DNA from: Trichodesmium erythraeum IMS101
GTDB taxonomy: Bacteria; Cyanobacteriota; Cyanobacteriia; Cyanobacteriales; Microcoleaceae
Direction of reading: 5' to 3'
DNA: 32,000 nucleotides
NCBI RefSeq assembly: GCF_000014265.1
Contig: NC_008312.1
Coordinates: 660,001 to 692,000, forward strand
The translations under genes were made by a program, and so were the position numbers. Below, piece after piece: positions 7,323 to 23,198 of this stretch (position 1 is the first letter of the stretch; each line of letters begins with the position of its first letter). The notes under the pieces are model-generated. The model worked only from the letters and a program-made list of their open reading frames with translations, had not been told where the DNA came from and made no database searches.

Positions 7323-9340
7323 TCACCAGGTTCAGGATTTTGGTTGGTATGCACCTGAACGTAGAGGTTGCCATGAAATAAGTTGAATAGAGAAGTCGTA
7401 ACGGGAGTAGTTCCCGGCATTTGAGCAGGAGATAGAATGGCTATTTCCCCAGCTGGAATATCGCCCCCTTCCAGAATGCTTGCTTCAACTATACTACTTT
7501 TTGCCTTAGATATGGTAATGTTTTCTGTTATTTTAACCCTGGCACCGTTGTCAAAGTTGAGCTGAGTTCCCTCAAAAATGTTGAGTTTATCTTCAGGTTC
7601 TTCATCTCGCAATTTGATGCCTAAAGCACCATTATTGTAGGCTTCAACAACTTCAATTTCTAATTTAGGAGCTTTCCAGTCACCATAAACACCATCAGAT
7701 TTAGGCTCAGAATGGCGAGCAAAATTGGCAGCAGCATCAGACCAATCCCACTTACCTATAATCCTTTCATTTTCGTAATCAATCTCAATGTTATCATCAT
7801 CTTCCGATGGTGTCCCAAAGACGTTCAAAACGTGACTGCCATCAGTGCCGTAGCCGCGGTGGTGAAAGTGAATTTCGGTAATGGCGTTCTCAGCTGTACG
7901 CTTTACAGGATCTTCAATTAGGTCAAGTCCATTTAATTCAATGGTATATTCTATTTCTGTCTGTTCTGCATTCAGGCTAAAAGTTGCAAGTCCTGTAGCA
8001 TCTGAATCTACTCCATTTTGACTGCTATCTAAGAAAGCTTTAAATTCTTGAGCAGGTTCAGTCATTCCGTACTCTTCTAGCAGATAATTTTGAGCGGCCA
8101 GAATAGTATCTTGGTCTACATCGGGGGCAGCAGAGAGGTTTTGATTGTAGAGAATATAAACAGGATCGGAAGGAATGCTATCAGGAATATTAGTCTCAAC
8201 CTCAATTGGCAACAAGTAAAGCCCGTCATCAATACCTGTAGGTGAAGTTCCTTCCTGTAACTCCATGACGTAATGCCAGTGGTCATTACCTGGTTCGTCA
8301 TATACTGCATAATAGTAAGGTTTTCCCTTTACAACACCTTCCCCTGTGGTGACTTCATTGGCAAATTCTGCATACCATTCACCTTTATCATTAACATCCC
8401 AGTTTTCTTGAGACCAGGTCATCACCTCTCCACCTGTAGCCACAAAATCTTCACCATTCCATACCTTCAGCTCATCTAGAAAGTTGACTTGGAAATAGGT
8501 ATTGCGTTCGCGATCGAAAGAATCATCAGCAGGACTCCCGTCTACAGGAGTTTCATAGAACATATCTATCTGTGGTGTAAAGCCTGGAAAATAGGATGCG
8601 TTATTAGTATAACGATAGTCAAAGGCAGTATCTTTTTCTTCTATTTCCCGGTCATCCCAAATCCCAACTGGACTTAAAGTGAGATAGTCATCAGAAAATA
8701 TATTGGTGTAGGCGTTACTCACCCTATCATCTTTGCCAAGATAGGCTCTGACTTTACCTGTTTCATCTTGACCGACATAAAATTGTAACCCGTGAAATAC
8801 TCCAGGATAATCTTGAATAACTTGTGGTAAAAAAGCTATCTCTGAAGCAACTGAACCAATGCGGCTTTCTAAATCCCAAGTTCCCCCTTTTAATGGGTTG
8901 CCCACCTGATGTTTTGAAGCAGCAATATTGGCTCCAGTGAATTTATGTAAAAGTTGGAGCAAGTTATCTGATTGACTGGCAATATTACAACTATAGAGTA
9001 ATATATCGACAATTCCCCATTCTTGGAGATATCCGGTATATTTGGGAAGATTCTGCTCGCTTATTGGTGTTTTTCCCAAATATAAAATGCCAGGGTCGCC
9101 GTGACAAACAATATGTAAACTATTAGTTGGGTAATTAGATAAAAGTTCGGTAATTTGTTCTATACCATCACGCTTAGGGTCAATTAAAGCTACTTTTGTT
9201 TCTGGAGTAACTCCTGTAGTTAACTGGCGATAATTTTCCACTCTCGTGTCAATTACCATTAATCTTTTCTGCTGTCGCACTTGCTGCAAATTTTGGTTGA
9301 TTTCTATTGATTCTGTAGCTTTTTTTAAGATTGAGTTCAT
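6287..9340 (-). CDS. Secreted DUF4347 / CHRD / RTX-repeat protein, paralog B (1017 aa, full length)
   Basis: GAGGA 8 nt upstream of the ATG. The N-terminus (LMVIDTRVENYRQL..DGIEQITELL..SLHIVCHGDPGILYLG..ILLYSCNIA..TGANIAASKHQVGNPLKGGTWDLE) has the DUF4347 pattern seen at the start of giant RTX/cadherin-type exoproteins. CHRD signatures and about 10 GGxGxD nonapeptides follow. The C-terminal tail resembles a type I secretion substrate. Confidence 0.9.
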   Translation of the reverse strand: MNSILKKATESIEINQNLQQVRQQKRLMVIDTRVENYRQLTTGVTPETKVALIDPKRDGIEQITELLSNYPTNSLHIVCHGDPGILYLGKTPISEQNLPKYTGYLQEWGIVDILLYSCNIASQSDNLLQLLHKFTGANIAASKHQVGNPLKGGTWDLESRIGSVASEIAFLPQVIQDYPGVFHGLQFYVGQDETGKVRAYLGKDDRVSNAYTNIFSDDYLTLSPVGIWDDREIEEKDTAFDYRYTNNASYFPGFTPQIDMFYETPVDGSPADDSFDRERNTYFQVNFLDELKVWNGEDFVATGGEVMTWSQENWDVNDKGEWYAEFANEVTTGEGVVKGKPYYYAVYDEPGNDHWHYVMELQEGTSPTGIDDGLYLLPIEVETNIPDSIPSDPVYILYNQNLSAAPDVDQDTILAAQNYLLEEYGMTEPAQEFKAFLDSSQNGVDSDATGLATFSLNAEQTEIEYTIELNGLDLIEDPVKRTAENAITEIHFHHRGYGTDGSHVLNVFGTPSEDDDNIEIDYENERIIGKWDWSDAAANFARHSEPKSDGVYGDWKAPKLEIEVVEAYNNGALGIKLRDEEPEDKLNIFEGTQLNFDNGARVKITENITISKAKSSIVEASILEGGDIPAGEIAILSPAQMPGTTPVTTSLFNLFHGNLYVQVHTNQNPEPGDIRGQVLPVRTLADAEDDVLSGGTGNELFELDAADVGGIEIEELAGRETLTLEGMETSMSNLHREDNDLIIDVNQDGSFQTAEDLTLKNFFADEVGVVGKGYIELVDEISGNEILRGVSSSGKDLVHGTSEDDIRQGKGGNDVISGFGGNDELYGNRGDDLLKGGDGNDILKGGYENDTLKGNSGNDTLIGWQGFDILLGGSGEDNLKGGIGRDRLNGGKDDDLLSGGASQDKFIFAANKTFSEADLGVDEITDFVSGPDKIILDVTVFTAIKTTPGESLDEGEFAVVDNETDVFSADATIVYNSANSTLYYNPNGVENGLGDGGSFALLSNEASLSADDFLVRA

Positions 9341-9641: not shown

Positions 9642-12600
9642 CTAATGAATTTCGGGTTCTAAACCCTTCAACTCACAAACCATCCCAGAACAAGCAGGAT
9701 CTTGAGGTCCTGTCTCTGGTAACTCACTCGCTAACACATAACCATTCATCAACTCGGAGAAATTATGAGACTTACGTCGTTGTAACACATCCTCTTGCAT
9801 TTTTTCATATTGATCCTTAGAGATATGTTCAAAGGGTAACCGAGGGAACGGTGCATCAAACCGTGCTAACAATGCTGAGGAAATATAACCCTCATCATCG
9901 CGAATTGCTTCATAAATGCGTTTGCCCAAAGGTTCAATTTCTGCTTCAGTTAACAAAATGGTACTACTACTATTATGAGTCGTCCAATTTTTCTGTACTT
10001 CCATGTAAAAATCAAACATAGCAGTAGCACTAAACTTCTCAATAGCAATCTCTTCAACCCCAGGCAAATCTATCCAAGATACCTGTACTGGAATTTCTAC
10101 TAACCATTCTTTAGCCCGTTCGTCAAAAGGATCGTTAAGTAAATTTCCATTTTCATCTTTGCCTGACTGCCCAGGAATTACAGAATAACCATAGTCAAGA
10201 CAAGCTAATGCTACGGGATCATTTTTCGCAAAAGTAATCCGTCGCACCCAGCGTAACCCAAAAGGAGGATGCCAACCAGGGGAAGCATTTGTTAACAGAG
10301 ACTTGGTGTTATGTGATTTCAAAGCACCTTGCCAATACCAAGAGTCATTATCATTTATACCTTCAATGGCAAAATCATAAGAATAATCACACACTGCACC
10401 AATATTAACAGACTCAATTTTGTATGGTGAATAATTCAACACACACTTAGATATAACTACAGGTCCTTCCTGACATTTGATACTGTTATGGTTGAGATAA
10501 TCTAAAGCATCAACATTAGACAACATAGGACTCAAACATAATCCCCATGTATTATTGTGTTGATTTTGTAAGTTCTCCCCTTTAGTATTCTGATATATAC
10601 TAAAACACAGTCCGATAGATTCCCCTATTTGTTGCAGGTTGTGAATAAAATCAGAGCTAGCTGAAGCTATGGATAGTTTTCCATCCTGAGGAACATATCC
10701 ATTAGTATCTATCAGACCACAGAAAAATGATAGCAAAGTAACTCGTGAAGAGCGACGTAAACTCAGAGGTATTCGTTCTAAATCTTCACTTTTCTGTGTT
10801 TTGACAAGCTGGTTTAAGTGCAGCCAGTAGAATAACTGTCGAGAAGCAAAGCATAATTCAAAACGACCGTTAGCAAAGTCATTTAAACTGCCTTTAATAC
10901 CAAATAATTTTTTGCCTTTTTCTTGGAGACCATACAAAACATCAAGTCTGCTATGATAAAAACAAACTTGATATTTGTTTTGAACAATGCAACCATTGCC
11001 GAATAAACAACCTAAAAAGTAAGCTAAGTCTGAAGTCATACTTGCAGGAGTCATGATTTTTTTTGTCAAGACACCACCGTTATGACCTAAAGTTTGAGAG
11101 TTGTTAACCTCTGTATAATCTTCCAACTGTAAAGGTATTAGTAAAGTATCTTCTCGTTTTTGATATTCACCAATACTGTAATCAAGCAACATTCCTGGCT
11201 TAAGATTACAAGCATGTATCCACTTACCCTTGACACTCATCCGATGATTTGGAGTCATGCGTAATTTCCGGCCATTAGCCAGTTTTATTTCTACCAGTTC
11301 CATTGGTTGATTAGCGATCGCTGTCGAAGCTCCAATACCATTACGAACAGTTAATCCTAATCCTACTGTTTCTCCACTGCCAGGTGTGACGACTTCATCT
11401 GCATAGAGCAAACCTTGGTTAAATATTCTCAATGCTGTTTTGTCAAGACAACCGGAAGGTTGAACTGTTGTACAACGGTTGGGACGCTTAAGGTTATGAC
11501 GATCGCAATAATCCCACACCACCCGATGCACTATTTCCCGCCAACGAGTTAAATATTTTGCCTCCTGTTGTTTAAACTCCAGACCTTGAGCTGTTGCCGG
11601 GCGACCTGCTTGCCACCAACGCAACCATTCAATGCCAAAAGCTTTTACAAAAAAGTCAAATAAACCAGTAAAAGATACTCCTACAATAGGGTCTAATTCT
11701 CGACTATAACGATAGCGAGGTTCAAGGAACTCATGCTTAAGTAGAGTTGCCACAGAAAGGGCACCAGCAGTAAAAGCTTCCTCCTGTTCTTTATAGTTAT
11801 TTGGTTCAATTTGATTGAGATGAATTTCCGATAAATTACAATTTCCTGTCAAGGCATTGCCAAAAACACCTTTATGAAATTCCGGCTCTTCAAAACAATA
11901 AGTGTCATGTAATCCTGGTAATTCTTCAACATTTTGAATTGTTTGATATTTACCTTGAAATTTAGCTTCACACACCTTAGTTGTATCTAGTCTTTGACAA
12001 GGAATTTCTCTACAATCAGTAATTTGTAAATAGTAAAGGTCTTGATTTCTTTCTCCTAAATTTGTAGTACAACCGCGACTTGCCATTAAATTGACTGATG
12101 CACGAATACCACATTTTGTCAACAATAATTGCAGTCTTTTTGCTCGTTCATAATCAGATACAGAAATTTTAATTCCATTACCTTTAGTCTCAGAACCATC
12201 TGTATCTGCTAATCCTGCGATAAAAGCAAGAATAGCGGATTTATTCCAACTAGCAATAGTATTTAAAGCATCAGGTTCAGTTTGTAGACGACGCAGTAGT
12301 TCTCCAGAAAACCCTAAATCTATAACATCCACAAAAGAAGGTAGATAATTATATTGTCGTTCCAGTGATTTATTACCAGCAAAAATTAATTCAGCTTTGT
12401 GAGAATAAACCCGAATTTTACCATTACTATTTTGGTCTATGGTTCCATTACCTAGAGCCGCACCCAATGTATAAGCATAAGATAAATTGATAGAATCTCC
12501 ATCATGATAATCTATGATAAAAGGTTCCACATCTAAAGCATATTTGCTATGAGTTAGCAAATCCTTTGTTTGTACTTCTTCATACTTTTTACCAAACCGA

Positions 12601-15600
12601 TCTTTCACAAAAAATCTGTGATATTCTGTCACATCAAGATAGGAACCATCCCCAAATCTGACCCGGTATAATTTTCTGTCTTTTCCTGTTTTCAAAGGAA
12701 TTACTTGACTCCAATTTTTGCCGTTCCAAATTTCAATTTTTTGACCAACAACATCTTTTATTTTGTGAATACTATCGCGAGTAATTAATAGAGTATCTCC
12801 GCTCACACAGTGAAAATTTGAACCAATAATTTCTCCGCAATTGTGAGTTAAACAACCATTAGCGATAAAAGAATTAGTTAAAGGAACATGTAAATCATAA
12901 ACAACTTCCTCTCCAAATTCTTCAACTTTTTTCACCTTTGATATGAACTTAGAATTAATAGTTGACTCAGAATAATTAGCTAACGTTTGTACTAGCAATT
13001 TTTCAGCCTTAACATTTTTACTTGGCGATAGCGGAAAGCCAATTAATTGTTGAAATAAACTGAAGCTAAAACTAGAAATCAATAGTTCATAACTACCCCG
13101 GCATAAACTAACTTCATGAGTTACATTAACAGTCCTATAAGGTACACCTATGTAATCTTTTTCCCTAACTAATCCAACTGTACTAATAATTCCTAAATTA
13201 GAGAGAATTAATTGAATTTGTTGGAGAAGTTTTTCCGAAACCATAGTTAGTTTGATTCTTCTTGAATCTTCATATACTATGCCATCTGCACTAAAAATTC
13301 CTTGTAAAAAACCAATTAAAACTTCCTGAGATTGACTAAGAAAATTATTAGGAAGTTCTTCTTTTCCAACTATACCTAAATCAGCAAAAAACTTTTCTAA
13401 TTTAGGATATTGGGTTGGGAATTCATAGACTCCTTTATGTAGTTTAGTTACATATTCTCTTTCTGTAATTGATGCAACTGCTTTTTCAACAACATTGTAG
13501 GCAGTTTCATAGTCATCCTGGTCAAAAACAAACCCTGTAGCAAAATAATCTTGCTTCCCGCCATGACTATGACTACGAGCTTTTATCTTAACATTATATC
13601 CATCCCTGTACCACCAACCAAGCATTTGAGCTTGAGCAACAGAAATAGTACCTTTGCCAAATTGACCCGCTCCTCCTTGAATATAAATATTGTCATCATC
13701 AGTTAAATCTCTAGTACTAACCCAACCTCGACTAGTAAAATGTTGATGGTCTCCAGTACATCGCATTTGCATTCCATTATTCAGAATAACTTGGTAGGTA
13801 GTTTTAACTCCCGTAGCAAAAGCGATCGCATCTGTTAACCTGACACCAGATAAACCTATAGAACGCAAATCTACCAATGCTTGAAATTGTTTACCTACTA
13901 AATCCTGAATTGCAATTAAACCTTGGTCTGTAGATACTAAAGTATCCCCTGAATGACAAGGGTTAAGTCCTAATCTCGCTAACCGATGTTCCAGTTCATC
14001 ATTAGTAATATTTGGATAGTGTTCTTGAAACCACTTTTTAGCATTATTTTTTTCATACGCTTTCAAGAAATCACTCTTTATTTCTGGAGTAAAAAGTAGA
14101 TCACGATTAGCACGAGCAACCGCTTCACCTGCCCACTGAATGGCGCCTTCACCAGAATAAAACTGTTTTCTCACTGCCTCTACACATTCTTCTAATGTTG
14201 GTTTGTAGTGGAAAACATGAGTATGATTTGCCATTCGCAGAGCATCTCTTTTAGGATCGATACCCCAGTTACCATTTTCATCTTGTCGCCAGAGATTATC
14301 CTTCGCTACAGTAAAGATATGATCGCTATTACTCCCCTGCCTGATACCTGCTGAATTTGAAACTAAAATTCCCTGGCAAACAAACTCATGAATACTGGCA
14401 ACTTCAATATCATAAGTTGATGCTTCCCTCACATCCATCTCAACCTTTTTCACCTTCACCGGAATTAAATCTGTCGCATCAACCACAAACTTTTTCACAG
14501 AAGGAAAAATCATCTGCTTGTGAACTTTGCCCAAATGATCTTGAGAAGTCTTTACTAAAGGTCTAACCATTTCCTTTGGAAACCCCTGGTCTGGGAAAAA
14601 CTTAAGGTGGTTCGGTTTTTGCACTGGGAACTGAGTCGAGTAATTCATCATCAGTTTTTCTACTGCTTCATAACCACCCTCACTTACAGTTACCAACTCA
14701 CCTTCCCATGTTCCAGTTGGCTTTTGCACCGAACCACACAATCTTGTAGTGATTCCTAAAGATGCATATAATGCTTGCACCTGTCGCAGAAAGCCTTGGT
14801 CAACTGAAGTTAAAAGTATACCCTGAGAATGACAACCATCTGCGTCTACTAAACCTGCCAAATAAGCTTGACGAATTTCTGTTGTTCCCATCAGAATACA
14901 CTCAGGAATACAAACAGAGTTAGATGGCTGTTTAAACTGTGACAGATATTTGTTAAGAGTGCTGCTATTTAACTCAAGTTCATAAGCTTGAGTTTGAAAT
15001 TGTTCCAGCGTTCTCAGTCTATGTGTTTCCAAACCAAACTCTTGAGCAACATTAATCAGTCGCTCCAGAATTTCCGGACTATCTTGGGAAACTCGAAACC
15101 TAACTTGCCCTCCATCAGAACCAACCGATCCATTTCCAGACAAGTATCCTAGAAAATAAGCAACTTCGCTCTGTAGAGCGGGTATCGTTATGAGTTTGGC
15201 CTCAGATGATGGAACAGCTTTTAACTCAGGTAGTTCAGTGGGAGTACCCGGTATTGCTTGAGGGACAAAAATTAGGCGATCGCCTTCTTGTAAGTCTTTA
15301 GCCTTAATCATTTTATAGTTACCATACAAATCTTGTAGCACAGCAACTTTATGATCAGGAGTACATTCAAAATATCCATCTTCTGTTTGAATACGACATA
15401 AAGACTGAATACCCTGGTCAAAGAAGTTGGTCACAGGATAAAATCCTTGGCTCGTTAATACGCGATCGCCAATCCGAATTTTTTCAATAGCTACCAACCC
15501 TGAAGCTGTATGTACTAAAGCACCTTCAGGTAAACATCTTCGAATATTCCCGGCAACTATTGTGACTGCTGCTTCGTCAATAAGCAAACAACACTCCACA

Positions 15601-15662
15601 GAATTTAATTGTCGCCCAACTGCTTGATTTAAAATGTTCCCACAACGTTCATATAATTCTGG
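9642..15662 (-). CDS. nrdJ: nrdJ exon 4 (extein segments plus four in-frame inteins)
   Basis: Track ORF 9642..15599, extended 21 codons upstream (PELYERCGNILNQAVGRQLNS) to the 3' splice site of intron 3. The track start 'M' is an internal GTG. Confidence 0.9.
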   Translation of the reverse strand, partial: PELYERCGNILNQAVGRQLNSVECCLLIDEAAVTIVAGNIRRCLPEGALVHTASGLVAIEKIRIGDRVLTSQGFYPVTNFFDQGIQSLCRIQTEDGYFECTPDHKVAVLQDLYGNYKMIKAKDLQEGDRLIFVPQAIPGTPTELPELKAVPSSEAKLITIPALQSEVAYFLGYLSGNGSVGSDGGQVRFRVSQDSPEILERLINVAQEFGLETHRLRTLEQFQTQAYELELNSSTLNKYLSQFKQPSNSVCIPECILMGTTEIRQAYLAGLVDADGCHSQGILLTSVDQGFLRQVQALYASLGITTRLCGSVQKPTGTWEGELVTVSEGGYEAVEKLMMNYSTQFPVQKPNHLKFFPDQGFPKEMVRPLVKTSQDHLGKVHKQMIFPSVKKFVVDATDLIPVKVKKVEMDVREASTYDIEVASIHEFVCQGILVSNSAGIRQGSNSDHIFTVAKDNLWRQDENGNWGIDPKRDALRMANHTHVFHYKPTLEECVEAVRKQFYSGEGAIQWAGEAVARANRDLLFTPEIKSDFLKAYEKNNAKKWFQEHYPNITNDELEHRLARLGLNPCHSGDTLVSTDQGLIAIQDLVGKQFQALVDLRSIGLSGVRLTDAIAFATGVKTTYQVILNNGMQMRCTGDHQHFTSRGWVSTRDLTDDDNIYIQGGAGQFGKGTISVAQAQMLGWWYRDGYNVKIKARSHSHGGKQDYFATGFVFDQDDYETAYNVVEKAVASITEREYVTKLHKGVYEFPTQYPKLEKFFADLGIVGKEELPNNFLSQSQEVLIGFLQGIFSADGIVYEDSRRIKLTMVSEKLLQQIQLILSNLGIISTVGLVREKDYIGVPYRTVNVTHEVSLCRGSYELLISSFSFSLFQQLIGFPLSPSKNVKAEKLLVQTLANYSESTINSKFISKVKKVEEFGEEVVYDLHVPLTNSFIANGCLTHNCGEIIGSNFHCVSGDTLLITRDSIHKIKDVVGQKIEIWNGKNWSQVIPLKTGKDRKLYRVRFGDGSYLDVTEYHRFFVKDRFGKKYEEVQTKDLLTHSKYALDVEPFIIDYHDGDSINLSYAYTLGAALGNGTIDQNSNGKIRVYSHKAELIFAGNKSLERQYNYLPSFVDVIDLGFSGELLRRLQTEPDALNTIASWNKSAILAFIAGLADTDGSETKGNGIKISVSDYERAKRLQLLLTKCGIRASVNLMASRGCTTNLGERNQDLYYLQITDCREIPCQRLDTTKVCEAKFQGKYQTIQNVEELPGLHDTYCFEEPEFHKGVFGNALTGNCNLSEIHLNQIEPNNYKEQEEAFTAGALSVATLLKHEFLEPRYRYSRELDPIVGVSFTGLFDFFVKAFGIEWLRWWQAGRPATAQGLEFKQQEAKYLTRWREIVHRVVWDYCDRHNLKRPNRCTTVQPSGCLDKTALRIFNQGLLYADEVVTPGSGETVGLGLTVRNGIGASTAIANQPMELVEIKLANGRKLRMTPNHRMSVKGKWIHACNLKPGMLLDYSIGEYQKREDTLLIPLQLEDYTEVNNSQTLGHNGGVLTKKIMTPASMTSDLAYFLGCLFGNGCIVQNKYQVCFYHSRLDVLYGLQEKGKKLFGIKGSLNDFANGRFELCFASRQLFYWLHLNQLVKTQKSEDLERIPLSLRRSSRVTLLSFFCGLIDTNGYVPQDGKLSIASASSDFIHNLQQIGESIGLCFSIYQNTKGENLQNQHNNTWGLCLSPMLSNVDALDYLNHNSIKCQEGPVVISKCVLNYSPYKIESVNIGAVCDYSYDFAIEGINDNDSWYWQGALKSHNTKSLLTNASPGWHPPFGLRWVRRITFAKNDPVALACLDYGYSVIPGQSGKDENGNLLNDPFDERAKEWLVEIPVQVSWIDLPGVEEIAIEKFSATAMFDFYMEVQKNWTTHNSSSTILLTEAEIEPLGKRIYEAIRDDEGYISSALLARFDAPFPRLPFEHISKDQYEKMQEDVLQRRKSHNFSELMNGYVLASELPETGPQDPACSGMVCELKGLEPEIH
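10308..11450 (-). mobile_element. Intein 4 (381 aa) with LAGLIDADG homing-endonuclease domain
   Basis: Junctions are TVQPSG|CLDKTALRIF ... GALKSHN|TKSLL. Block B is MTPNHRM. Dodecapeptide motifs are AYFLGCLFGNGCI and LLSFFCGLIDTNGYV. Confidence 0.88.
11841..12809 (-). mobile_element. Intein 3 (323 aa) with LAGLIDADG homing-endonuclease domain
   Basis: Junctions are GSNFH|CVSGDTLLIT ... GNALTGN|CNLSEI. Block B is VTEYHRF. Dodecapeptide motifs are YTLGAALGNGTI and ILAFIAGLADTDGS. The penultimate residue is Gly rather than His. Confidence 0.88.
12840..13958 (-). mobile_element. Intein 2 (373 aa) with LAGLIDADG homing-endonuclease domain
   Basis: Junctions are LGLNP|CHSGDTLVST ... NGCLTHN|CGEII. 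Block B is CTGDHQHF. Dodecapeptide motifs are MLGWWYRDGYN and LIGFLQGIFSADGIV. Confidence 0.88.
14355..15536 (-). mobile_element. Intein 1 (394 aa) with LAGLIDADG homing-endonuclease domain
   Basis: Junctions are AGNIRR|CLPEGALVHT ... QGILVSN|SAGIRQ. Block B is CTPDHKV. Dodecapeptide motifs are AYFLGYLSGNGSV and AYLAGLVDADGC. The penultimate residue is Ser rather than His. Confidence 0.88.
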
Positions 15663-18216
15663 GTTAAACTAAGCAAGTTCATTTCCGGTTACCCTTTATT
15701 GAACCTGCTCGTCTTCAAAACCGTACATGAGACTTTCACCTCATACGGCTTCTCTCTTAGACGCCCCAATTCAAAGGTACATCCCTGCTTTATAGAGTTA
15801 CCATATTGTCTACCCATTGGTATCCTTCTGGTATTTCAGGAGCTTTATTCAATCTTCCGACTGGGATGTCTCCCTCTCTAGTGCAGTTTTAGTATCGTGG
15901 CAGTGTCGATGTAATAACTCTTTGTTCTTGCTTGTGCTATTACCCTTTTCAGACCTCGGAATGACATGGTAAACCTCCATAGTATCCGTTGGTCTGAAAC
16001 TTAGCCCACAAAATGCGCATTTACCTTTCTGCTTTTTCAACAGAGTCGAAACTTCTTTCCTTATGCCTGGACTGTTAACCATTCTACTACTCCAATAAAT
16101 CCAGTCACCATCGTAGGGCGATTTATTATCCTTAACTTTAACGTGTCTTATAATAGACACATCAGAGTGTAGATTTAGTATATATTCCTCATCCTTAAGT
16201 ACCCAACTTTTGGTTCCTTCTCTGTGAGGAAAGTACTTCTCTTTCACCCAGGCTGCTGACTTATTAGAATGTCTCCGGCTTGCCCATCGCCATATTCTCC
16301 TCAATAAGAGATGGTCTAGCTTTTGAAATATGTCATTACTGACTACCGCTGAAAAGTAGTTAGCCCATTCTCTTATTATCGGGTTTAACTTAGTTATCAA
16401 TACCTTGACAGTAGCACTTTTATGAGTATCACATACCTCTGCCATTTTCCGATAATGAGTATTAATACTCTGTTTGGATGGTTTGATCAGCGTTTTGAAC
16501 CCTTGCTTGCTTGTTTTTACCTTCCACTGCCTAACTGTGAATCCTAGAAAGTCAAATCCGGGCTGGTTCCCTTCATATTCTTCTAGTGTGTGAGCAATTC
16601 TGGTTTTTTCCGGTTTCAGTTCCAATCCTATGTTATTTAACCATTCCTGTACCACAGCTTTTGCCTGCATTACTACCTCAATATCTTTGTGTAATATTAC
16701 AAAGTTACCGGCATATCTTACTAAAGATAATGCTTGTATATTATCCCTTTTATTTCCTGGTAGTGTTTCAGCAAAGTCTTGTAGGCATTTTTCCATACCG
16801 TGTAGAGCGATATTTGCTAGCAGGGGACTAATTACCTCTCCTTGTGGTGTACCTAACTCCAAGAGAGGTGGATCGAATTGACTCTTGTCAAATACTCCAG
16901 ACTTTAGCCACTGTTTGACTAATTGTCTATAGGGAGATTTATCTATTTTTCCTAGCAGTGCATGATGGTTAACTTCGCTCATACATTTGGATATGTCAGC
17001 ATTCAGTACATATTTTGGTTCGTCGTTGATACTGAGGTAAATCGCCTGAATAGCGTCATCTGTTGACCGACCCGGCCTAAAACCATAGGTATTAGTTTCA
17101 AAGTGAGCCTCCCATTCTGGTTCCATGCCCAACTTAACTAAAGTTTGCAGTCCCAAGTCGTACAGCGAGTGAATGCCTAACCGGCGCTTCTGGTTTCTAC
17201 CAGTTTTTGGTATTGAGACCTTCTGAGTTGGGCTAGCTTTAAGGTCACGTGATTTTAACAAATCCACCAAGTGGAGTCGCTGCATTGGAGGTAGATTTTT
17301 GATCCCATCTATCCCAGCAGTTTTCTTGCCCTGGTTGTCCTGGGTCACATTTCTAACAGCTAGCAACAAGGCGTCATGACTTTTGATCAGAAGTTTTTGA
17401 TATTTGCGCATCTTGCGGATCTCACCACGGCTGGATGCTCTGTAAATTAACTTTTGCAACTTAAATACATTCTTCTCAACCTTTTTCCAATCTATGTCTC
17501 TCCATTTCAGATTAGGATTAACACAAATTTTATCCGGTATATCGTCTGTATCCCATGCCACGCTTAAAAAGGATTCTGGCTTGTCCATTCTTCTTTTTAG
17601 TGTTTTAGCCTTTTCCATTACTAATTATTACCTTACATTACGTCTAACAGTGGGTACGTCTGCATGATTATGCTTCTTACCCAATCCTACTCTCCTTAAG
17701 ACCTGCAACCTTTGTGCAGACTAACCTTGAATGGCTTCCTAAATTTATCGACCTATTTTATCAGGTGTCTTAAAGAGGTTTCCTCGTTCCCTTATGCCTT
17801 TATTGCGACTGATTTAGCGGGGTAAACTCTCCCGGAGGGTTCTGTCTGATTGTTGATAATATCAAATTAATAATATTACCCATTGACCCCCTGGCTTATT
17901 GCCCTACATCCCACAGCTACCTTTGGGATGGTTCCCGGTTACGGGAGTTTTCTTACCTTCCTGTTCGTCCACTTGTCAATCTCTGCTAGAAGTCTCACTC
18001 TTTTGGTAGTTAAAGCTTTGACCCCATTTAGGCCAGCTTCAGGGATTGATGTTCAGTCTCTACCCTGTGGCCTACGCTGTCAACCTAACAACAAGGCGGA
18101 TGGAATTTCACCATCAAGATCATAAGAGTTATCCATTAGTCGAGGTTTCCCTCACTTGTTGACTAAGGACGGCCATTTATATCTAGTTTCCTAGCTTAGT
18201 GGCCAACGAGTCGCAC
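15663..18216 (-). mobile_element. Group II intron 3 of nrdJ (2554 nt, ORF-containing)
   Basis: The 5' end is GTGCGACTCGTTGGCC (GUGYG consensus). Domain V is AAGCCGTATGAGGTGAAAGTCTCATGTACGGTTT (about 15718-15751). Domain VI has a bulged A 7 nt from the 3' end (..GCTTAGTTTAAC|). Removing the intron joins ..GVANPVKL to PELYERCG.. in frame. Confidence 0.85.
15849..17618 (-). CDS. Intron 3-encoded protein: RT-like / maturase (X) / DNA-binding / HNH endonuclease, 589 aa
   Basis: RT blocks: TAGIDG, RRLGIHSLYDLGLQ, YGFRPGRSTDDA, LNADISKC, GTPQGEVISPLLANIALHG. The RT-5 box reads YAGN instead of YADD. The X domain contains LNPIIREWANYF. C-terminal HNH: CAFCGLSF..VYHVIPRSEKG..LLHRHCHDTKT. Confidence 0.9.
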   Translation of the reverse strand: MEKAKTLKRRMDKPESFLSVAWDTDDIPDKICVNPNLKWRDIDWKKVEKNVFKLQKLIYRASSRGEIRKMRKYQKLLIKSHDALLLAVRNVTQDNQGKKTAGIDGIKNLPPMQRLHLVDLLKSRDLKASPTQKVSIPKTGRNQKRRLGIHSLYDLGLQTLVKLGMEPEWEAHFETNTYGFRPGRSTDDAIQAIYLSINDEPKYVLNADISKCMSEVNHHALLGKIDKSPYRQLVKQWLKSGVFDKSQFDPPLLELGTPQGEVISPLLANIALHGMEKCLQDFAETLPGNKRDNIQALSLVRYAGNFVILHKDIEVVMQAKAVVQEWLNNIGLELKPEKTRIAHTLEEYEGNQPGFDFLGFTVRQWKVKTSKQGFKTLIKPSKQSINTHYRKMAEVCDTHKSATVKVLITKLNPIIREWANYFSAVVSNDIFQKLDHLLLRRIWRWASRRHSNKSAAWVKEKYFPHREGTKSWVLKDEEYILNLHSDVSIIRHVKVKDNKSPYDGDWIYWSSRMVNSPGIRKEVSTLLKKQKGKCAFCGLSFRPTDTMEVYHVIPRSEKGNSTSKNKELLHRHCHDTKTALERETSQSED

Positions 18217-18522
18217 TAATTTTACCGGGTTCGCAACACCTCCAAATCCCTTTAAAGGCTCTCCCGCAGGTCTAACATGACTCAAGTCAATGATCACATT
18301 AACTTTTCCTGAAAACTGCTTATCTGTTGACAACTCCAACAAAGCTCGATAAGACTCTACCCAACCTTGACGACTATCACCAACAAAAATTTCTGCTTTT
18401 GCTTTGTCTTGATGACATTTTACTTCTGTCAGCTCACGACGTAACTCAGCAGGAGTAGTACCAATGTCACCTCGCAATACAATATTTAGATAATTGTGAA
18501 TCGGTGGTAGTTGATTTATATA
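18217..18522 (-). CDS. nrdJ: nrdJ exon 3 (102 codons)
   Basis: YINQLPPIHNYLNIVLRGDIGTTPAELRR...DLSHVRPAGEPLKGFGGVANPVKL. It is bounded by the 3' end of intron 2 (..TTAGTTTAAC|TAT) and the 5' end of intron 3 (TTA|GTGCG). The length is a multiple of 3. Confidence 0.85.
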
Positions 18523-20279
18523 GTTAAACTAAGCAAACCCATTTCCGGCTGCCCTTTATAGAGTCTGCTCGTCTTCAAAACCGTGCGTGAGACTTTCACC
18601 TCACACGGCTCCTCTCCTAAACGTCCCAATTCAAGGGCACATCCTTAAAATTCCACCTAAGACCTCATGAGTCCTAATAATTTACTGCTTTTAAATCCTC
18701 AGCAGTCTTAGAGTCGTGGCAATGTTGGTGCAATACCTATTTATTCTTATAGGTATTATCACCACCCTTAGACTTAGGAAAAACCCGGTCAACCTTGATT
18801 TATACCTTGGTCTAAAGTGTATTCCACACCATGCGCATTTACCTTTTTGCCATTTTAACACAATTGTAACTTCCTTTCTTACACCTGGGTATGTACCGAT
18901 TTTGCTAGTCCAATAAGTCCAGTCACCATCTAATAGTGATTTCTTACCTTTAACTTTGATGTGCCTTGTAATAGGTACATCTGAGTATTGGTTTAGTATA
19001 TATTCCCCCCTTTTAATAATCCAATTGTTATTCTAAATTTTGGGGAAATACTCTTATTTAACCCATTTGTCTAACTTATTTGGATGCCAACAACCCTGCC
19101 CATTGACCTAATCTCTGTCATAAAAGCACCTTCATTTTATCAAAGAGCTTTTTACTGACTACAAACGTGCATCCCTCAAAAGGTAACCTACCTAGTTTCA
19201 CCAGTACTTGTAAGACCCTATCGTACATCAAACAGGATGCCTAATGGACATTTTTTATCTTTACCTGGCTTTGGTATCGGTGACTCTAGAGTTGGACTTA
19301 CTTTGAGATAACCTGATGCAAGTAGGTCTATCAGGTTGAATTGTTGAATCTGTAGTAGATTTTTAATACCATCTACACCCACAGCCTTCTAACCGGGTTA
19401 ACTGTGTCACCCGTTTAACAGCCAGCAACAAGGCGTAATAACTTGTGCTCAGAAGTCTTTGGCATTTACACTTTCAATGGAATATCGCCACGGCTGGATG
19501 CTCTGTAAATTAACTTTTGCAACTTAAATACATTCTTCAGGACCCGTCTCCAATAAATGTCTATCAATTTAAGGTTAGGATTAACACTTACTTGATTCAG
19601 TATATCATCTGTATTCCATGCCACACTTAAAAATGCTCTAAAGTTTCCTAGCTTCCTTTTTAGTGTTTTAGCCTTGTTCATCGCTAATTGTTACCCTACA
19701 TTACGTTTAACAGTGAGTACGTCTGCATAGATATGCTTCTTACTCAATCCTACTCTCTCTAAGACCTGCGTCCATTTGCGCAGATTGACCTTGAATGGCT
19801 TCCTAAGTTCTCGACCTATATTCTTAGGTGTCATAAAGAGGTTTCCTCGTTCCCTTATACCTTTATTACGGTTGATTTAGTGGGGTAAATTCTCCCGGAG
19901 GGTTCAACATGGTTGTTAATAATCTTCCACATATAAGATTATTCAAAGACCCCCTGACTTTCGTCCTAAACTCCTTAGCTACCTTTGAAGTTGTTATTAG
20001 TTACGAGAGTTTAATTACCTTCCTATTCGTCCACTTGTCAGCCTTTGCTAAAAGTCTCACTCATTTGGTAGTTAGAGCTTTGACCCCATTTAGGCCAGCT
20101 TTAGGGATTGATGTTCAGTCTCTACCCTATGGCCTATGCTGTCAACCCAACAACGGGGCGGATGGAATTTCACCATCAAGGACATAAGAGTTTTCTAGGC
20201 CGATGTTTCAAATCATTTCTTAACCTAGAAGGCTTGCTATACCTGCTTTTAGCAGTTTTTACTAGCCAACGAGTCGCAC
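18523..20279 (-). mobile_element. Group II intron 2 of nrdJ (1757 nt), a paralog of intron 3 with a decayed ORF
   Basis: The 5' end GTGCGACTCGTTGGC matches intron 3 over the first 15 nt. Domain I is about 85% identical to intron 3 by eye. Domain V is GAGCCGTGTGAGGTGAAAGTCTCACGCACGGTTT (about 18578-18611). The 3' end ..GCTTAGTTTAAC| is identical to intron 3. Confidence 0.85.
18674..19681 (-). pseudogene. Remnant of the intron 2-encoded RT/maturase
   Basis: The N-terminal 71 aa (MNKAKTLKRKLGNFRAFLSVAWNTDD...LQKLIYRASSRGD) parallel the intron 3 ORF. After that the frame is broken by stops and frameshifts, and most of RT blocks 3-7 and X are deleted. C-terminal traces remain (..DGDWTYW.., ..CAWCG.., HCHDSKTAEDL). 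Confidence 0.8.
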
Positions 20280-20420
20280 ATGTGGTTCCAATACGGCACC
20301 CGTACCACAGCCCATCATAGCTAAGTCCATCAATAGACCGAAGGAGTACCAATCTATAATATTAGTGGACGAACAGTTATAAGCCCCCGAAAAGTTTCCC
20401 TGTTGTAAAATCCATTCTGT
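20280..20420 (-). CDS. nrdJ: nrdJ exon 2 (47 codons)
   Basis: TEWILQQGNFSGAYNCSSTNIIDWYSFGLLMDLAMMGCGTGAVLEPH. It lies between the 3' end of intron 1 (..GCTTAGGGTAAT|ACA) and the 5' end of intron 2 (CAT|GTGCG). Confidence 0.85.
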
Positions 20421-22946
20421 ATTACCCTAAGCCACCCCATCGCTGTGGTGACTCGGCTTCAGAACCGTGCATGAGACTTTCACCTCACACGGCTCCTCAA
20501 TGATTTGGCTTTTGTCATAAGTACCGTCTCGTTTGGTTTTGATGTCATGGCAGTGATTATGTAGTAATTAGTAATTTCTGTAGTTATCTTTACTGTTTTC
20601 CTAAACTTACCCAAGCTTACACATACATGATTACACAAGCTTTGGTAGCTAAGTTTCTATTTCACAGAAGACCAATGACAGCAGTCTGTAACTTATCTTC
20701 CCTTTCCATTACATCTTCATCTGGTGAAGTACATACTACATTCTGTATATTTTCCTGATTGTTTCTTGAGCACTTTGGCAACTTTTGTTGGTCATTCAGC
20801 ACTTTTTCCCATACGGGTAGTCCAGTAGATTAGATTTCCATCATATGGACTACTCTCTCCCTTTACCTTCACAAAGTTTTTGATCTGAAAGTCTTCGTGA
20901 TATACAAGACAGATTCTATTACCGTTTTCAATTGTTTTGAATATCCAATTGCTTTTACCTTTGGTGCCAAAATATTTTTTAATCGTCTCTTTTATCGACT
21001 TGTGATGATGTCTAGACTTACCCCATGCAATTAATTTTAAAGTTAAGAGGTGGTCAAGCTCCTTAAATGTTTTAGCACTATTAACTTTTGAGTAATAGTT
21101 ACTCCATCCAGTAATAATTGGATTTAATCCCTTGATTAAATCTATCTGAGATTTGCAAGATTTGAATTTGTCAATCTCAGAGGCTAATCTTTGATAATGA
21201 GCTTTGATTTCCTCTTTACTTGGCATTATGTAGGTTTTGTATCCTAATGGTTTTCCGTATGTATTTTTGCCTGTTGTATATTTTCCTACTGGATATTGAC
21301 GAATGTTAAAGCCAAGGAAATTAAAACCCGGTTCCTCTTCTCCTACCTGAATGAGTGTATGAGTTAAACGAGTTTTTTCTGGTTTGAGTTCTAGCCCCAT
21401 TCCTCTAAGAAATTCCTCTACTAAGGCTTTTGCTTTTGTAACCACATTCAAATTCGGGTGAAGTATTACAAAATGATCTGCATATCTTACCAAAGTTATT
21501 TCTTTCTCATTTTTAACCTTTTTTCCCGAAAGACTATAAGCAAATTCCTTAACAATTTTCTCCATCCCATGTAAGGCGATATTTGCCCATAACCCTGAGA
21601 TTACTTCTCCTTGGGAGATACCTTCATCCATTAGGAACCACGACTCATTGTCATATACTCCAGACTTGAGCCAAGCTTTAATCTGTCTCCTGACTTTTGG
21701 AAAGGTTCCAATTTTATCTAACAGCTTTTCGTGGTCAATATTATCAAAGCATTTGGCAATATCAGCATTCAAGACATATTTACTTTTCTGCTTTATTGCT
21801 GCTTTAATTCCTTCTACGGCATCCATACAACTTCTGCCCGGTCTGAAACCATAAATATTAGGTTCAAATTTAGCTTCCCATTCAGGTTCTATTGCCATCT
21901 TCACAAGCCCTTGCTTTGCTCTTTCAGATATTGTCAGAATTCCTAAAGGTCTTTTTTCTGTCTTCCCTGGTTTGGGAATCCATATTCTACAAGTAGATTT
22001 GGCTTTATGGCTCATTACTAAGTTATTGGCCAAGTTTACTCTTTCTTTGAGCGTTAGACTTTTCTTGCCATCAATACCCGCAGTTTTCTGACCTTTATTA
22101 TCCTGTATTACTCTGCGAGTCGCCAGCATTTTAGCCGACCAAGAATTTAACAGGGTCTTTTGCAGTTTTCTTACCGCCTTGACATCTCCCCTTTGAGCAG
22201 CTTGATAGATTCTTTTTTGCAACTTGTACACCACGCGTTTTAGTTTTCGCCAGTTCACAGGTGTCCATACCACCATCGGATTTTTCCGTGTTTTAGTCAT
22301 TATTCATTGCTATTCAAAACTCCATCTTCCAAATCATCGGGAATTTGTCTGCATATCCTATTTATTACAAATAAGCATTAGCTTCTGATTCCATCTCTTC
22401 CTGTAGTGGCATACAGTTGATACCTACTCAAAAATCGACCTTTTAGAGGGCCAATACAGGATTACTTCGTTCCGTATAACCTTTGCTTGAACATTTAGGA
22501 TGGTACTACTCGGCCGGAGACTGGAGGGCGTGACCTGATAATGGTGGTATTTTCAGGTTCCGTTTGTCTCAGTGTCTTTTGACTGCAGCGTATCAACCAT
22601 TCTTTTCGCTACTTACTGGGTTACGACCGTTCAGACATACCTTCACTTTCGTTATCCATGTGTTCTTGCTTGCTGGGATTTACCTTATGGTTCGGTATTA
22701 CCAGCGTTTATCCCCGCTTTATCCTTTGATAATCAGTCTCTAGATAGGGGAAATGCTTTCACTCCCACGCTTTGGAGGGTAGGACTTTCACCTACAAGGT
22801 TATACAGTTCTCAAGGTTCCATGGTTTGTAGGTTTGTTAAAAGATAATTAACTTTTACTACAAATCCTTTAAGCCTTGGGAGTCATCCTCGTAGTTTATT
22901 GACTTAAAGTGTCTTGTGCACTACGTTTCGACTCAACGAATCACAC
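20421..22946 (-). mobile_element. Group II intron 1 of nrdJ (2526 nt, ORF-containing, a different lineage from introns 2 and 3)
   Basis: The 5' end is GTGTGATTCG. Domain V is GAGCCGTGTGAGGTGAAAGTCTCATGCACGGTTC (about 20462-20495). Domain VI has a bulged A 7 nt from the 3' end. Removing the intron joins ..GRWLWVGG to TEWIL.. in frame. Confidence 0.85.
20792..22300 (-). CDS. Intron 1-encoded protein: RT-like / maturase, 502 aa, En domain lost
   Basis: RT blocks: TAGIDG, RPLGILTISERAKQ, YGFRPGRSCMDA, LNADIAKCFDNIDH, GISQGEVISGLWANIALHG. The RT-5 box reads YADH instead of YADD. The X domain contains LNPIITGWSNYY. The ORF ends right after SPYDGNLIYW. Confidence 0.9.
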   Translation of the reverse strand: MTKTRKNPMVVWTPVNWRKLKRVVYKLQKRIYQAAQRGDVKAVRKLQKTLLNSWSAKMLATRRVIQDNKGQKTAGIDGKKSLTLKERVNLANNLVMSHKAKSTCRIWIPKPGKTEKRPLGILTISERAKQGLVKMAIEPEWEAKFEPNIYGFRPGRSCMDAVEGIKAAIKQKSKYVLNADIAKCFDNIDHEKLLDKIGTFPKVRRQIKAWLKSGVYDNESWFLMDEGISQGEVISGLWANIALHGMEKIVKEFAYSLSGKKVKNEKEITLVRYADHFVILHPNLNVVTKAKALVEEFLRGMGLELKPEKTRLTHTLIQVGEEEPGFNFLGFNIRQYPVGKYTTGKNTYGKPLGYKTYIMPSKEEIKAHYQRLASEIDKFKSCKSQIDLIKGLNPIITGWSNYYSKVNSAKTFKELDHLLTLKLIAWGKSRHHHKSIKETIKKYFGTKGKSNWIFKTIENGNRICLVYHEDFQIKNFVKVKGESSPYDGNLIYWTTRMGKSAE

Positions 22947-23198
22947 GCCACCGACCCATAACCAACGACCAGAGGATAAGGCCTTCAGTTGGCTTTGCAT
23001 CCGATAGAGTAAGTCTGTTTCTTCCTCTGTGAGTTGGCCCAACTTTCTCAGGCCATCAATTGTGCGATCGCACACTTCTACCCAAGTCTCACGGCCAGTT
23101 TTTGTCTTACGGCTATAAGTTCTGTAAAATACTGGATTAGCAGTGGGAGCTGCTTCTGGGAACTCCCTCTGACGTATTTTTTCTACTTCTTGTACCAT
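22947..23198 (-). CDS. nrdJ: nrdJ exon 1 (84 codons)
   Basis: ATG at 23196-23198 gives MVQEVEKIRQREFPEAAPTANPVFYRTYSRK...SGRWLWVGG, a typical class II RNR N-terminus. The longer track ORF (start 23297) adds a low-complexity AT-rich leader. Confidence 0.8.

Follow-up and report, generated by a model that had tools for sequence, protein, structure and literature searches.

Two intact intron-encoded proteins (IEPs) in the nrdJ locus of Trichodesmium erythraeum IMS101, designated here I1 and I3 after the first and third intron, have lost the YADD box of reverse transcriptase (RT) block 5, and they are likely to be RT-dead proteins kept by selection as splicing helpers in this essential gene. Both are encoded in the window, i.e., the whole stretch of 32,000 nucleotides analyzed here (contig NC_008312.1, positions 660,001 to 692,000), where the Trichodesmium-type nrdJ, a ribonucleotide reductase gene, is split by three group II introns. 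These interrupt the coding sequence at codon junctions, as established by tblastn and by reading of the junctions (Table 1). The ribozyme 5' ends at the exon junctions are GTGTG and GTGCG, conforming to the GUGYG type, and the D5/D6 ribozyme parts are intact in introns 1, 2 and 3, with Rfam Intron_gpII/D5 matches downstream of each ORF; I1 and I3 are accordingly placed in domain IV of ribozymes bearing both of these hallmarks. Intron 2 is 78% identical to intron 3 over its first 1020 nt and 69% identical over its last 500 nt, and is a derivative of an intron-3-like element with an internal deletion of ~1 kb. Its ORF is shattered into fragments and provides an internal neutral control. In vivo splicing is reported for introns 1, 2 and 3 of nrdJ (PMC4143802, Table 2). 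I1 and I3 display two features of degenerate maturases: their RT catalytic residues are lost while the ORF stays open, and their introns interrupt a host gene whose expression needs splicing.

Table 1. Features of the intron-bearing nrdJ locus, in the order of transcription (positions are those of the window)
Feature	Position	Strand	Basis
nrdJ exon 1 (class II ribonucleotide reductase), ends ...WLWVGG	22947..23198	-	tblastn with intron-less Okeania NrdJ (L007), aa 1-84, 85% identity; junction read
Group II intron 1, 2526 nt	20421..22946	-	Junctions; Rfam Intron_gpII and D5 matches at 20421-20498
Intron 1 termini: 5' GTGTGATTCG; 3' ...GGCTTAGGGTAAT	20421..22946	-	
Intron-1 encoded protein I1, 502 aa, RVT_N + RVT_1 + GIIM(X), without En domain	20792..22300	-	Pfam; phmmer to 6ME0, E 1e-70
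YADH replacing RT block-5 YADD in I1 (second catalytic Asp to His)	21473..21484	-	
Pseudogenized D/En (HNH) remnant of I1, 3' of the I1 stop codon	20499..20791	-	tblastn with orthologue tail (L002)
nrdJ exon 2, 47 codons	20280..20420	-	tblastn and junctions
Group II intron 2, 1757 nt, without intact ORF	18523..20279	-	Rfam D5/D6 at 18523-18614
nrdJ exon 3, 102 codons	18217..18522	-	tblastn and junctions
Group II intron 3, 2554 nt, 5' end GTGCGACTCG	15663..18216	-	D5/D6 at 15663-15754; Rfam 59-63 bits; junctions
Intron-3 encoded protein I3, 589 aa, RVT_N + RVT_1 + GIIM(X) + HNH	15849..17618	-	Pfam; phmmer to 6ME0, E 2e-93 over aa 36-576
YAGN replacing RT block-5 YADD in I3 (both catalytic Asp lost)	16704..16715	-	
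HNH endonuclease domain of I3	15882..16019	-	Pfam HNH, aa 534-579; alignment to 6ME0; column statistics
nrdJ exon 4 with in-frame inteins	9642..15662	-	tblastn; Pfam Intein_splicing, four LAGLIDADG_3 stretches, Hom_end

Both proteins align with the full length of the Pfam RVT_1 profile (1-205 of 205; E 1e-28 for I3 and 4e-37 for I1), and both are also matched by RVT_N, corresponding to RT0 (E 8e-30 and 3e-29), and by GIIM, corresponding to domain X (E 3e-20 and 4e-18). In I3 the block-5 segment LVRYAGNFVIL occupies aa 299-309 (window 16692-16724), with YAGN at aa 302-305 (TAT GCC GGT AAC), and in I1 the segment LVRYADHFVIL occupies aa 270-280 (window 21461-21493), with YADH at aa 273-276 (TAT GCA GAT CAT). 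Phmmer comparison with solved structures places lvrYAGNfvil and lvrYADHfvil alike on lirYADDfvvt of the T.el4h RT (6ME0; E 2e-93 and 1e-70, respectively), and the YAGN of I3 also aligns with the YADD of 7UIM and 6AR1, the alignments to the three solved RTs being unambiguous. In MAFFT alignments with 240 homologues, the box column reads YADD in 213, among which both Asp columns are invariant. The original prediction that neither intact IEP retains a YADD is thus borne out, including the assignment to block 5 that it proposed to verify by alignment: YAGN and YADH fall on the YADD of relatives and solved RTs alike. A box elsewhere in either protein can be rejected, as a search throughout I1 and I3 found no second [YF]xDD, and I1 is devoid of any DD dipeptide. 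A sequencing or assembly error is likewise rejected, because independent database copies bear the same motifs, namely YAGN in a metagenomic copy 99% identical to I3 (P0001/L001) and YADH in a protein 100% identical to I1 (P0121). Looking up the two ORFs among exact-sequence clusters gave no match, probably on account of start-codon differences. Hence, the catalytic YADD carried by retrohoming-competent introns is replaced in both proteins.

The decay is not confined to the box. When departures from the consensus are counted at those columns which are at least 95% conserved among the 213 YADD-bearing relatives, I3 shows 18 and I1 shows 11 in RT1-7, whereas the YADD-bearing relatives themselves average 1.4 and reach 11 at most. 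In contrast, the X domain departs at just one of 22 conserved columns in I3 and at none of 22 in I1, and RT0 of I3 at none of 25. For I3 the difference between RT1-7 (18/109) and RT0 plus X (1/47) is significant (Fisher p = 0.014), as is that between RT1-7 and X when both proteins are pooled (p = 0.037). The additional lesions lie in RT blocks 1, 2, 3 and 4: a 100%-conserved block-2 Arg is changed in I3, and both proteins have altered the first Asp of DADI (giving NADI) and the Gly of PQGG (giving PQGE). The original description of the other RT blocks and the X domain as well preserved is therefore only partly true: all the blocks are recognizable and X is largely spared, but with respect to RT1-7 it understates the decay.

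These lesions bear directly on whether I1 and I3 could still be reverse transcriptases operating through a non-canonical active site. The fold-defining RT blocks can be recognized, the block-3 catalytic Asp (the second Asp of D-A-D-I) is kept, and purifying selection acts on the RT domain (see below), all of which such an enzyme would display. However, the two block-5 Asp columns tolerate no change in the 213 relatives, conversion of YADD to YAHH or YAAA abolishes RT activity according to the cited literature, neither protein offers a substitute YxDD, and the lesions in blocks 1 to 4 compound the loss, making this notion exceedingly improbable. As judged from these residues, I1 and I3 would be devoid of RT activity.

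Further insight comes from the orthologues of I1. Intron 1 is inserted at the identical nrdJ codon junction in L002, L003, L004, L008 (Trichodesmium MAG_R02), L068 (Coleofasciculus) and L070, and in L085 (Nostoc), L086 and L087 (Microseira) an intron-1-like IEP is encoded directly after nrdJ exon 1; counting the latter three on this basis, it is present at nrdJ in at least nine other cyanobacterial loci. Intron 1 is thus orthologous across genera, and the box states over its copies are YADH, YASD, YADN (three times) and YADD (four times). The dN/dS ratio of the I1 of the window against box-less orthologues (YASD, YADN) at the identical nrdJ site is 0.13-0.14, a pairwise measure which spans also the time before each box loss. 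On the terminal branch of the window I1, omega is about 0.12 (0.14 for RT1-7 and 0.05-0.10 for X), and for RT1-7 it ranges from 0.10 to 0.25 on box-less branches as opposed to 0.03-0.04 on a YADD branch. These omega values derive from comparisons of the window, L002, L004 and L086, NG86 dS being saturated or undefined for L008, L068, L070, L085 and L087. As a control, the visibly decayed En domain of one orthologue yields an omega of 0.7-0.8. The contrast between this value and the omega of about 0.13 indicates that the I1 ORF has been kept by selection despite the lost polymerase site, which is the pattern expected from the dN/dS comparison suggested along with the original prediction. The strong constraint that still acts on the RT domain of I1 (omega about 0.14) fits a role as an RNA-binding scaffold, and is also compatible with a residual nucleotide-dependent function.

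For I3, no orthologues between 99% and 73% identity were found among the database relatives. It differs from its 99%-identical relative at eight non-synonymous and one synonymous codons, seven of these differences being in residues 2-18, and its relatives beyond that are paralogues at no more than 73% identity, for which dS would be saturated; hence no omega is given for I3. Selection on I3 is instead supported by the pattern of conserved-site retention described above, together with the literature on its trans-acting role considered below.

The same data speak to the view that the two ORFs are young pseudogenes which have yet to acquire stops, with splicing accomplished by the ribozymes themselves or by other IEPs. 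The many substitutions at conserved RT sites in both proteins and the loss of the C-terminal domain from I1 would be in keeping with this, and T. erythraeum has been reported to be rich in pseudogenes (PMC4649490). However, omega on the box-less I1 branches (about 0.12-0.14) is far below the 0.7-0.8 of a truly decayed domain, the conserved X-domain columns are kept almost without exception (22/22 in I1 and 21/22 in I3), and ORFs of 502 and 589 codons have stayed open at 36.5% G+C, whereas stops abound in the adjacent intron-2 ORF and in the I1 En remnant. Taken with the published trans-maturase activity of the RIR intron protein, this renders the pseudogene view very unlikely.

The endonuclease region is damaged in both proteins. 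The intact D/En domain on which En-dependent mobility relies is reduced in I1 to a pseudogene remnant that aligns in two frames at 76-77% identity and contains a premature stop, a Cys to Tyr change in a CxxC, a frameshift and a second stop. I3 retains a Pfam HNH match (E 7e-9), in which EVYHVIP stands where relatives have EVDH, so that a metal-ligand Asp (96% conserved) is changed to Tyr at aa 550, and two conserved Gly residues are changed as well. Introns 1 and 3 would therefore be expected to lack autonomous mobility. Even so, the designation of these introns as immobilized needs to be qualified, since a YADD-bearing protein of the same species, P0011, could mobilize them in trans. In its strongest form, this would imply that the introns are RT-dead in cis yet mobilized by RT-competent paralogues, the family as a whole being an active population of retroelements. 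P0011 (635 aa, with YADD and HNH), which is annotated in T. erythraeum IMS101, is indeed the nearest neighbor of I3 at 73% identity, and I3-like introns, many of them without an ORF or without the box, occur in several genes of Trichodesmium-type contigs (L088-L092). Additionally, the nrdJ of Trichodesmium sp. MAG_R02 (L008) lacks introns 2 and 3, which must therefore have been gained or lost relatively recently. However, IEPs usually prefer their own encoding intron, as established for LtrA, recognition of the DIVa of another intron by P0011 at 73% identity is only putative, and the inheritance of intron 1 looks vertical or site-specific, its En domain having decayed long ago. On balance, a family that is actively mobile by this route appears unlikely.

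The preferred reading thus remains that I1 and I3 function solely as maturases, as originally predicted, and it is supported by the concentration of decay in the RT domain with X spared, the low omega of I1, the En damage and the published trans-maturase role. Under this reading, both proteins would descend from ordinary reverse-transcriptase/maturase/endonuclease proteins, in which polymerase catalysis was lost through the YADH or YAGN replacement plus the lesions in RT blocks 1-4, and target-DNA cleavage was probably lost too, through pseudogenization of En in I1 and the Asp to Tyr change in the HNH of I3. It is proposed that they are kept open and conserved because the host must remove the introns from an essential mRNA. 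The domains of LtrA and other IEPs are established to bind intron RNA and to support its folding and splicing; by analogy, RT0, the fingers/palm scaffold and X (thumb) of I1 and I3 may still bind intron RNA and aid its folding and splicing, and I1 is predicted to be an active maturase on these grounds. According to published experiments, I3 additionally splices several introns in trans, serving relatives that lack an ORF, intron 2 among them.

The locus itself is not new. The T. erythraeum RIR (nrdJ) introns RIR-1, RIR-2 and RIR-3 are reportedly the subject of a 2003 study by Liu, Yang and Meng (J Biol Chem 278:46826), and a 2005 study by Meng, Wang and Liu (J Biol Chem 280:35085) is said to have presented RIR-3 as a 'general maturase'. 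The gene in the window is organized like that system: its 5' part is interrupted by three group II introns, of which the first and third carry an ORF and the second does not, and inteins occupy its 3' part. The published trans-maturase role agrees with the RT-dead state found here. Both studies are cited in PMC4143802, PMC4649490 and PMC12584367, the last of which states, citing Meng et al. 2005, that the RIR intron RT 'functions as a general maturase', and PMC4424553 refers to trans-splicing by this cyanobacterial IEP as demonstrated. A full-text literature search, covering sources other than the two J Biol Chem papers, found no mention of the YAGN/YADH state of the box in Trichodesmium introns, the terms YAGN, YADH and YADN returning only unrelated uses. 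What is added here to the RIR work is the set of orthologues with other lesions, the dN/dS estimates and the RT-specific nature of the decay.

Among solved structures, the best relative of the window proteins is the RT of the TeI4h intron of Thermosynechococcus (T.el4h, 6ME0), which shares with them the order RT0-RT7, X, D, En; unlike them, it has YADD and a DH/HH-type HNH motif. A close parallel in bacteria is O.i.I2, also an intron in a host protein-coding gene, whose IEP is open without YADD and other motifs and has been inferred to be a maturase. However, O.i.I2 is of the ML class and from a Firmicute, whereas the window proteins are close to cyanobacterial IEPs such as the T.el4h RT; further, two such proteins are found here in one gene, one of them also serving other introns in trans. 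In organelles, MatK of the chloroplast trnK intron, MatR of the plant mitochondrial nad1 intron 4 and Porphyridium plastid mat1a/mat1b have similarly lost RT residues while keeping domain X, the intron being fixed in an essential gene and En truncated, and MatK resembles the system described here in that one protein services several introns. In MatK, RT0-4 can no longer be aligned, whereas the window proteins align over all RT blocks and the RT domain is still constrained, with an omega of about 0.14 for I1. This degree of alignability and constraint points to an earlier stage of the process, in a free-living bacterium.

Degenerate intron proteins that act only as maturases are considered a hallmark of organelles and have rarely been reported in bacteria. 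A 2015 review names a single bacterial case (PMC4424553). The window adds two, both within a single essential gene of a free-living cyanobacterium, and one of them, I3, is the protein already shown to splice many ORF-less introns in trans. Both the nrdJ intron locus and the concept of a degenerate maturase are already known. The present results leave the general picture of group II intron function unchanged. The wider family displays a recurrent trend: the DD pair has been lost at least 12 independent times among the 240 close relatives, and otherwise invariant positions have been struck convergently. Of 23 degenerate proteins, 19 have N, H or R in place of the second Asp of YADD, and PQGG has become PQGE in nine, I1 and I3 included, these two being only about 47% identical to each other and sharing also the change of DADI to NADI. 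We tentatively raise the possibility, in our estimation doubtful at present, that polymerase loss is a recurrent and possibly selected route of domestication in filamentous cyanobacteria, beyond passive decay. If true, free-living bacteria would repeatedly convert intron RTs into splicing factors that are dedicated to this task and in part act in trans, and would offer a living model for the transition between mobile group II introns and a Prp8-like protein of the spliceosome. In any case, the series of intron-1 orthologues (YADD, YASD, YADN, YADH), along with I1 and I3, constitutes a graded and experimentally tractable set, which could help to trace the conversion of a selfish retroelement into an intron that depends on its host and has a splicing factor of its own, a transition postulated to have led towards spliceosomal introns.

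The class II ribonucleotide reductase gene nrdJ, on the minus strand of the window, is split by three group II introns, the first and third of which encode the proteins referred to here as I1 and I3. The 1985-aa precursor specified by exon 4 contains several in-frame inteins that carry LAGLIDADG or Hom_end homing-endonuclease domains, Pfam matching four LAGLIDADG_3 stretches, Intein_splicing and Hom_end. Selfish elements of two kinds hence crowd the gene. The overall gene architecture is the one already published for RIR/nrdJ of T. erythraeum (cited in PMC4143802 and PMC4649490), and the split RNA-seq reads listed for each of the three introns in Table 2 of PMC4143802 indicate that all three splice in vivo. 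Both large flanking ORFs, 14-2110 (plus strand) and 6287-9340 (minus strand), combine CHRD with RTX calcium-binding repeats, the second also containing DUF4347.

Features of nrdJ and its introns in the window (exon and intron bounds from tblastn with the intron-less Okeania NrdJ, L007, and junction inspection)
Feature	Position	Strand	Basis or content
nrdJ exon 1	23198-22947	-	tblastn, junctions
nrdJ intron 1	22946-20421	-	tblastn, junctions
nrdJ exon 2	20420-20280	-	tblastn, junctions
nrdJ intron 2	20279-18523	-	tblastn, junctions
nrdJ exon 3	18522-18217	-	tblastn, junctions
nrdJ intron 3	18216-15663	-	tblastn, junctions
nrdJ exon 4	15662-9642	-	tblastn, junctions
Group II intron D5/D6	15663-15754, 18523-18614, 20421-20498	-	Rfam
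I1 ORF	20792-22300	-	502 aa; RVT_N, RVT_1, GIIM only
I1 LVRYADHFVIL	21461-21493	-	aa 270-280; YADH at 21473-21484
I1 D/En remnant	20791-20499	-	3' of I1 stop; 76-77% identical to orthologue tail
Intron-2 ORF fragments	19466-19681, 19218-19382, 18691-18861	-	resemble N- and C-termini of I3
I3 ORF	15849-17618	-	589 aa; RVT_N, RVT_1, GIIM, HNH
I3 LVRYAGNFVIL	16692-16724	-	aa 299-309; YAGN at 16704-16715

As the original prediction held, the canonical YADD box of RT block 5 has been lost from both proteins. A phmmer search of all PDB sequences aligns the YAGN string of I3 and the YADH string of I1 residue for residue with lirYADDfvvt of the T.el4h RT (6ME0; E-values 2e-93 and 1e-70, respectively), and that of I3 also with the YADD of 7UIM and 6AR1. 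Block 5 thus falls on YAGN and YADH, with no second YxDD anywhere in either whole sequence and no DD dipeptide anywhere in I1. An assembly artefact as the source of these motifs can be excluded, and the loss is real, since separate database copies show the same strings: P0001, 99% identical to I3, reads YAGN, and P0121, 100% identical to I1, reads YADH. Other intron-encoded proteins (IEPs) lose RT activity when YADD is changed to YAAA or YAHH. Eight amino acids differ between I3 and L001, a metagenomic copy with 99% identity, and seven of them lie in aa 2-18 (17565-17615, minus strand), ahead of RT0; the N-terminal extension may be free of constraint, or the true start codon may lie further in, e.g., at Met11.

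Of the 240 closest homologues from the I1 and I3 searches, 213 carry YADD, with both Asp columns invariant in those 213. The 27 database entries without it include 21 non-redundant proteins that have lost one or both Asp and which, together with I1 and I3, constitute the 23 degenerate proteins analysed; the degenerate variants comprise YADN, YADH, YADR, YASD, YAED, YAAD, YADY, YAYD, YNDN and STDN. Fitch parsimony on a neighbour-joining tree requires at least 12 independent changes from DD to a degenerate state, and the nearest neighbours of most degenerate proteins carry YADD, so box loss is recurrent in this cyanobacterial group; it is uncommon per protein, yet not confined to the nrdJ locus. 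Trichodesmium-type contigs from marine metagenomes contain a phage-type lysozyme gene with several I3-like introns, whose intact IEP has a YADN box (L089/L090), and another multi-intron gene of this kind, with YNDN and YEDD IEPs and exons of 83 and 128 aa (L091/L092); in both, the introns with box-less IEPs adjoin deletion-derivative introns. A different I3-like intron, with YADD intact (51% identity), occupies Microcoleus nrdJ (L037, L042; about 11035-12882) at MGC|GTGAVLE, which lies 7-8 codons upstream of where intron 2 sits in the window.

The accompanying claim that the other RT blocks and the maturase domain X are well preserved stands for X and only in part for the RT blocks. Departures were counted at 181 alignment columns, those with a conservation of 95% or more in the 213 YADD relatives, leaving out the box itself. 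X departs at 1/22 columns in I3 and 0/22 in I1, as against 18 and 11 departures in RT1-7, where the YADD reference relatives average 1.4 and never exceed 11; RT0 shows 0/25 in I3 and four in I1, and I3 has three further departures in D/En columns, En being absent from I1. The contrast is significant between RT1-7 and RT0 plus X in I3 (18/109 vs 1/47, Fisher p = 0.014) and between RT1-7 and X in the two proteins pooled (Fisher p = 0.037). In block 1, RR has become QK in I3 and R has become C in I1; in block 2, RPLGIPT reads RRLGIHS and Leu replaces the 100%-conserved Arg of DR in I3; in block 3, DADI is NADI in both proteins and CFD is CMS in I3; and in block 4, PQGG is PQGE in both, with TPQGGVISPLL reading ISQGEVISGLW in I1. 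Decay of this kind around the active site makes the case for a dead polymerase stronger. NADI and PQGE (alignment columns 287 and 362) are shared by I1 (aa 178, 232) and I3 (aa 206, 261), themselves only about 47% identical. The Gly-to-Glu change in PQGG recurs in 8/23 box-less IEPs, a ninth having Asp, and this column departs in 12/240 sequences through at least 10 changes by parsimony; the shared substitutions at nearly invariant RT positions may reflect convergence rather than drift.

The endonuclease (En) domain of I1 persists 3' of its stop codon as a pseudogene, disrupted by a premature stop, a frameshift and then a second stop, and with one Cys of CxxC changed to Tyr. I3 retains a Pfam HNH match and reads EVYHVIP, with Tyr at aa 550 (15969-15971, minus strand) immediately before the catalytic His, where 96% of relatives have Asp. 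T.el4h has HH where most relatives have a D-H pair and I3 has YH; by analogy with HNH nucleases, in which this position is a metal ligand, the Asp-to-Tyr change would probably inactivate the I3 nuclease. The intron-1 protein of Trichodesmium sp. MAG_R02 (L008) has the HNH His replaced by Tyr (EVDYIIP).

The ORFs of I1's closest relatives lie directly 3' of an 87-88-aa nrdJ exon 1, and a scan of GTDB genomes with this exon recovered further cases. The window has exactly the same exon-intron junctions as L002/L003, L004, L008, L068 (Coleofasciculus) and L070, with ...TGG GTx GGx GGY then GTGTGATTCGTT at the 5' end and ...GGCTTAGGGTAAT then ACx at the 3' end; L085 (Nostoc sp. DSM 114159), L086 and L087 (Microseira wollei) share the exon 1/intron-1 arrangement. 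The box is YADH in the window, YASD in L002/L003, YADN in L004, L008 and L068, and YADD in L070, L085, L086 and L087. Intron 1 represents a site-specific lineage with several losses of the box via different substitutions. It occupies one and the same codon junction, WLWVGG|T, in Trichodesmium, Coleofasciculus, Nostoc, Microseira and other cyanobacteria; Okeania nrdJ (L007) has inteins and no introns. In the GTDB species set, exon 1 matches best to Okeania sp. SIO2F4, at only 90%, and the window's genome is not among the matches; the region may be masked or absent there.

For the three box-less copies nearest to one another, dN/dS (Nei-Gojobori, NG86, as for all values here) is 0.13 (window-L002), 0.13 (window-L004) and 0.14 (L002-L004), and a three-taxon estimate for the window's terminal branch gives 0.12 (dN 0.063, dS 0.516), the estimates being noisy because of their pairwise nature and because each path is in part older than box loss. 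Compared with 0.72-0.81 for the decayed En of L004, a positive control for relaxed selection (intact En domains, 0.04-0.19), these values place the I1 ORF under strong purifying selection. By domain, the window branch has 0.14 in RT1-7 and 0.10 in X, and the YADD-bearing L086 branch has 0.03-0.04 and 0.08-0.15; moderate relaxation is confined to the RT domain. This pattern fits a protein that would need the RT scaffold for RNA binding and no longer for catalysis.

For I3, the homologue search found no orthologue between 99% and 73% identity and MAG_R02 nrdJ has intron 1 only, so dN/dS is not applicable. Intron 2 is an internal-deletion derivative of an intron-3-like element: about 1 kb is missing, and identity to intron 3 is 78% across the first 1020 nt and 69% across the last 500 nt. 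The I3 ORF has remained open over 589 codons of 36.5% G+C DNA, as against the shattered homologous ORF of intron 2; this, the retention of conserved RT0 and X columns, and the general-maturase role for related ORF-less introns reported for the RIR intron protein in PMC12584367 and PMC4424553 argue that I3 is functional.

In the proposed mechanism, I1 and I3 are both RT-dead maturases, I1 most likely acting in cis on intron 1, and I3 serving intron 3 as well as, in trans, intron 2 and further relatives, with splicing restoring the nrdJ mRNA. Autonomous retrohoming of introns 1 and 3 is very unlikely to occur, as both proteins have lost the polymerase site, I1 has also lost En, and the En of I3 is probably impaired. 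That the introns are immobilised, as originally predicted, is still an inference, because a relative with YADD, P0011, is annotated in T. erythraeum IMS101; it shares 73% identity with I3 and could conceivably mobilise I3-type RNAs in trans.

YADD lost and X kept is the textbook condition of MatK, MatR and the Porphyridium plastid mat1a/mat1b, and Zimmerly & Semper 2015 (PMC4424553) describe degeneration of bacterial IEPs as rare, with O.i.I2 as the sole known example. A literature search, the scope of which left the original JBC papers outside, found no paper noting the YAGN/YADH of the RIR proteins. Both the locus and the concept are known, and I1 and I3 are well-supported additional bacterial degenerate maturases; what is modestly new is the nrdJ intron 1 comparative series, together with the recurrent, partly convergent substitutions at the RT site.
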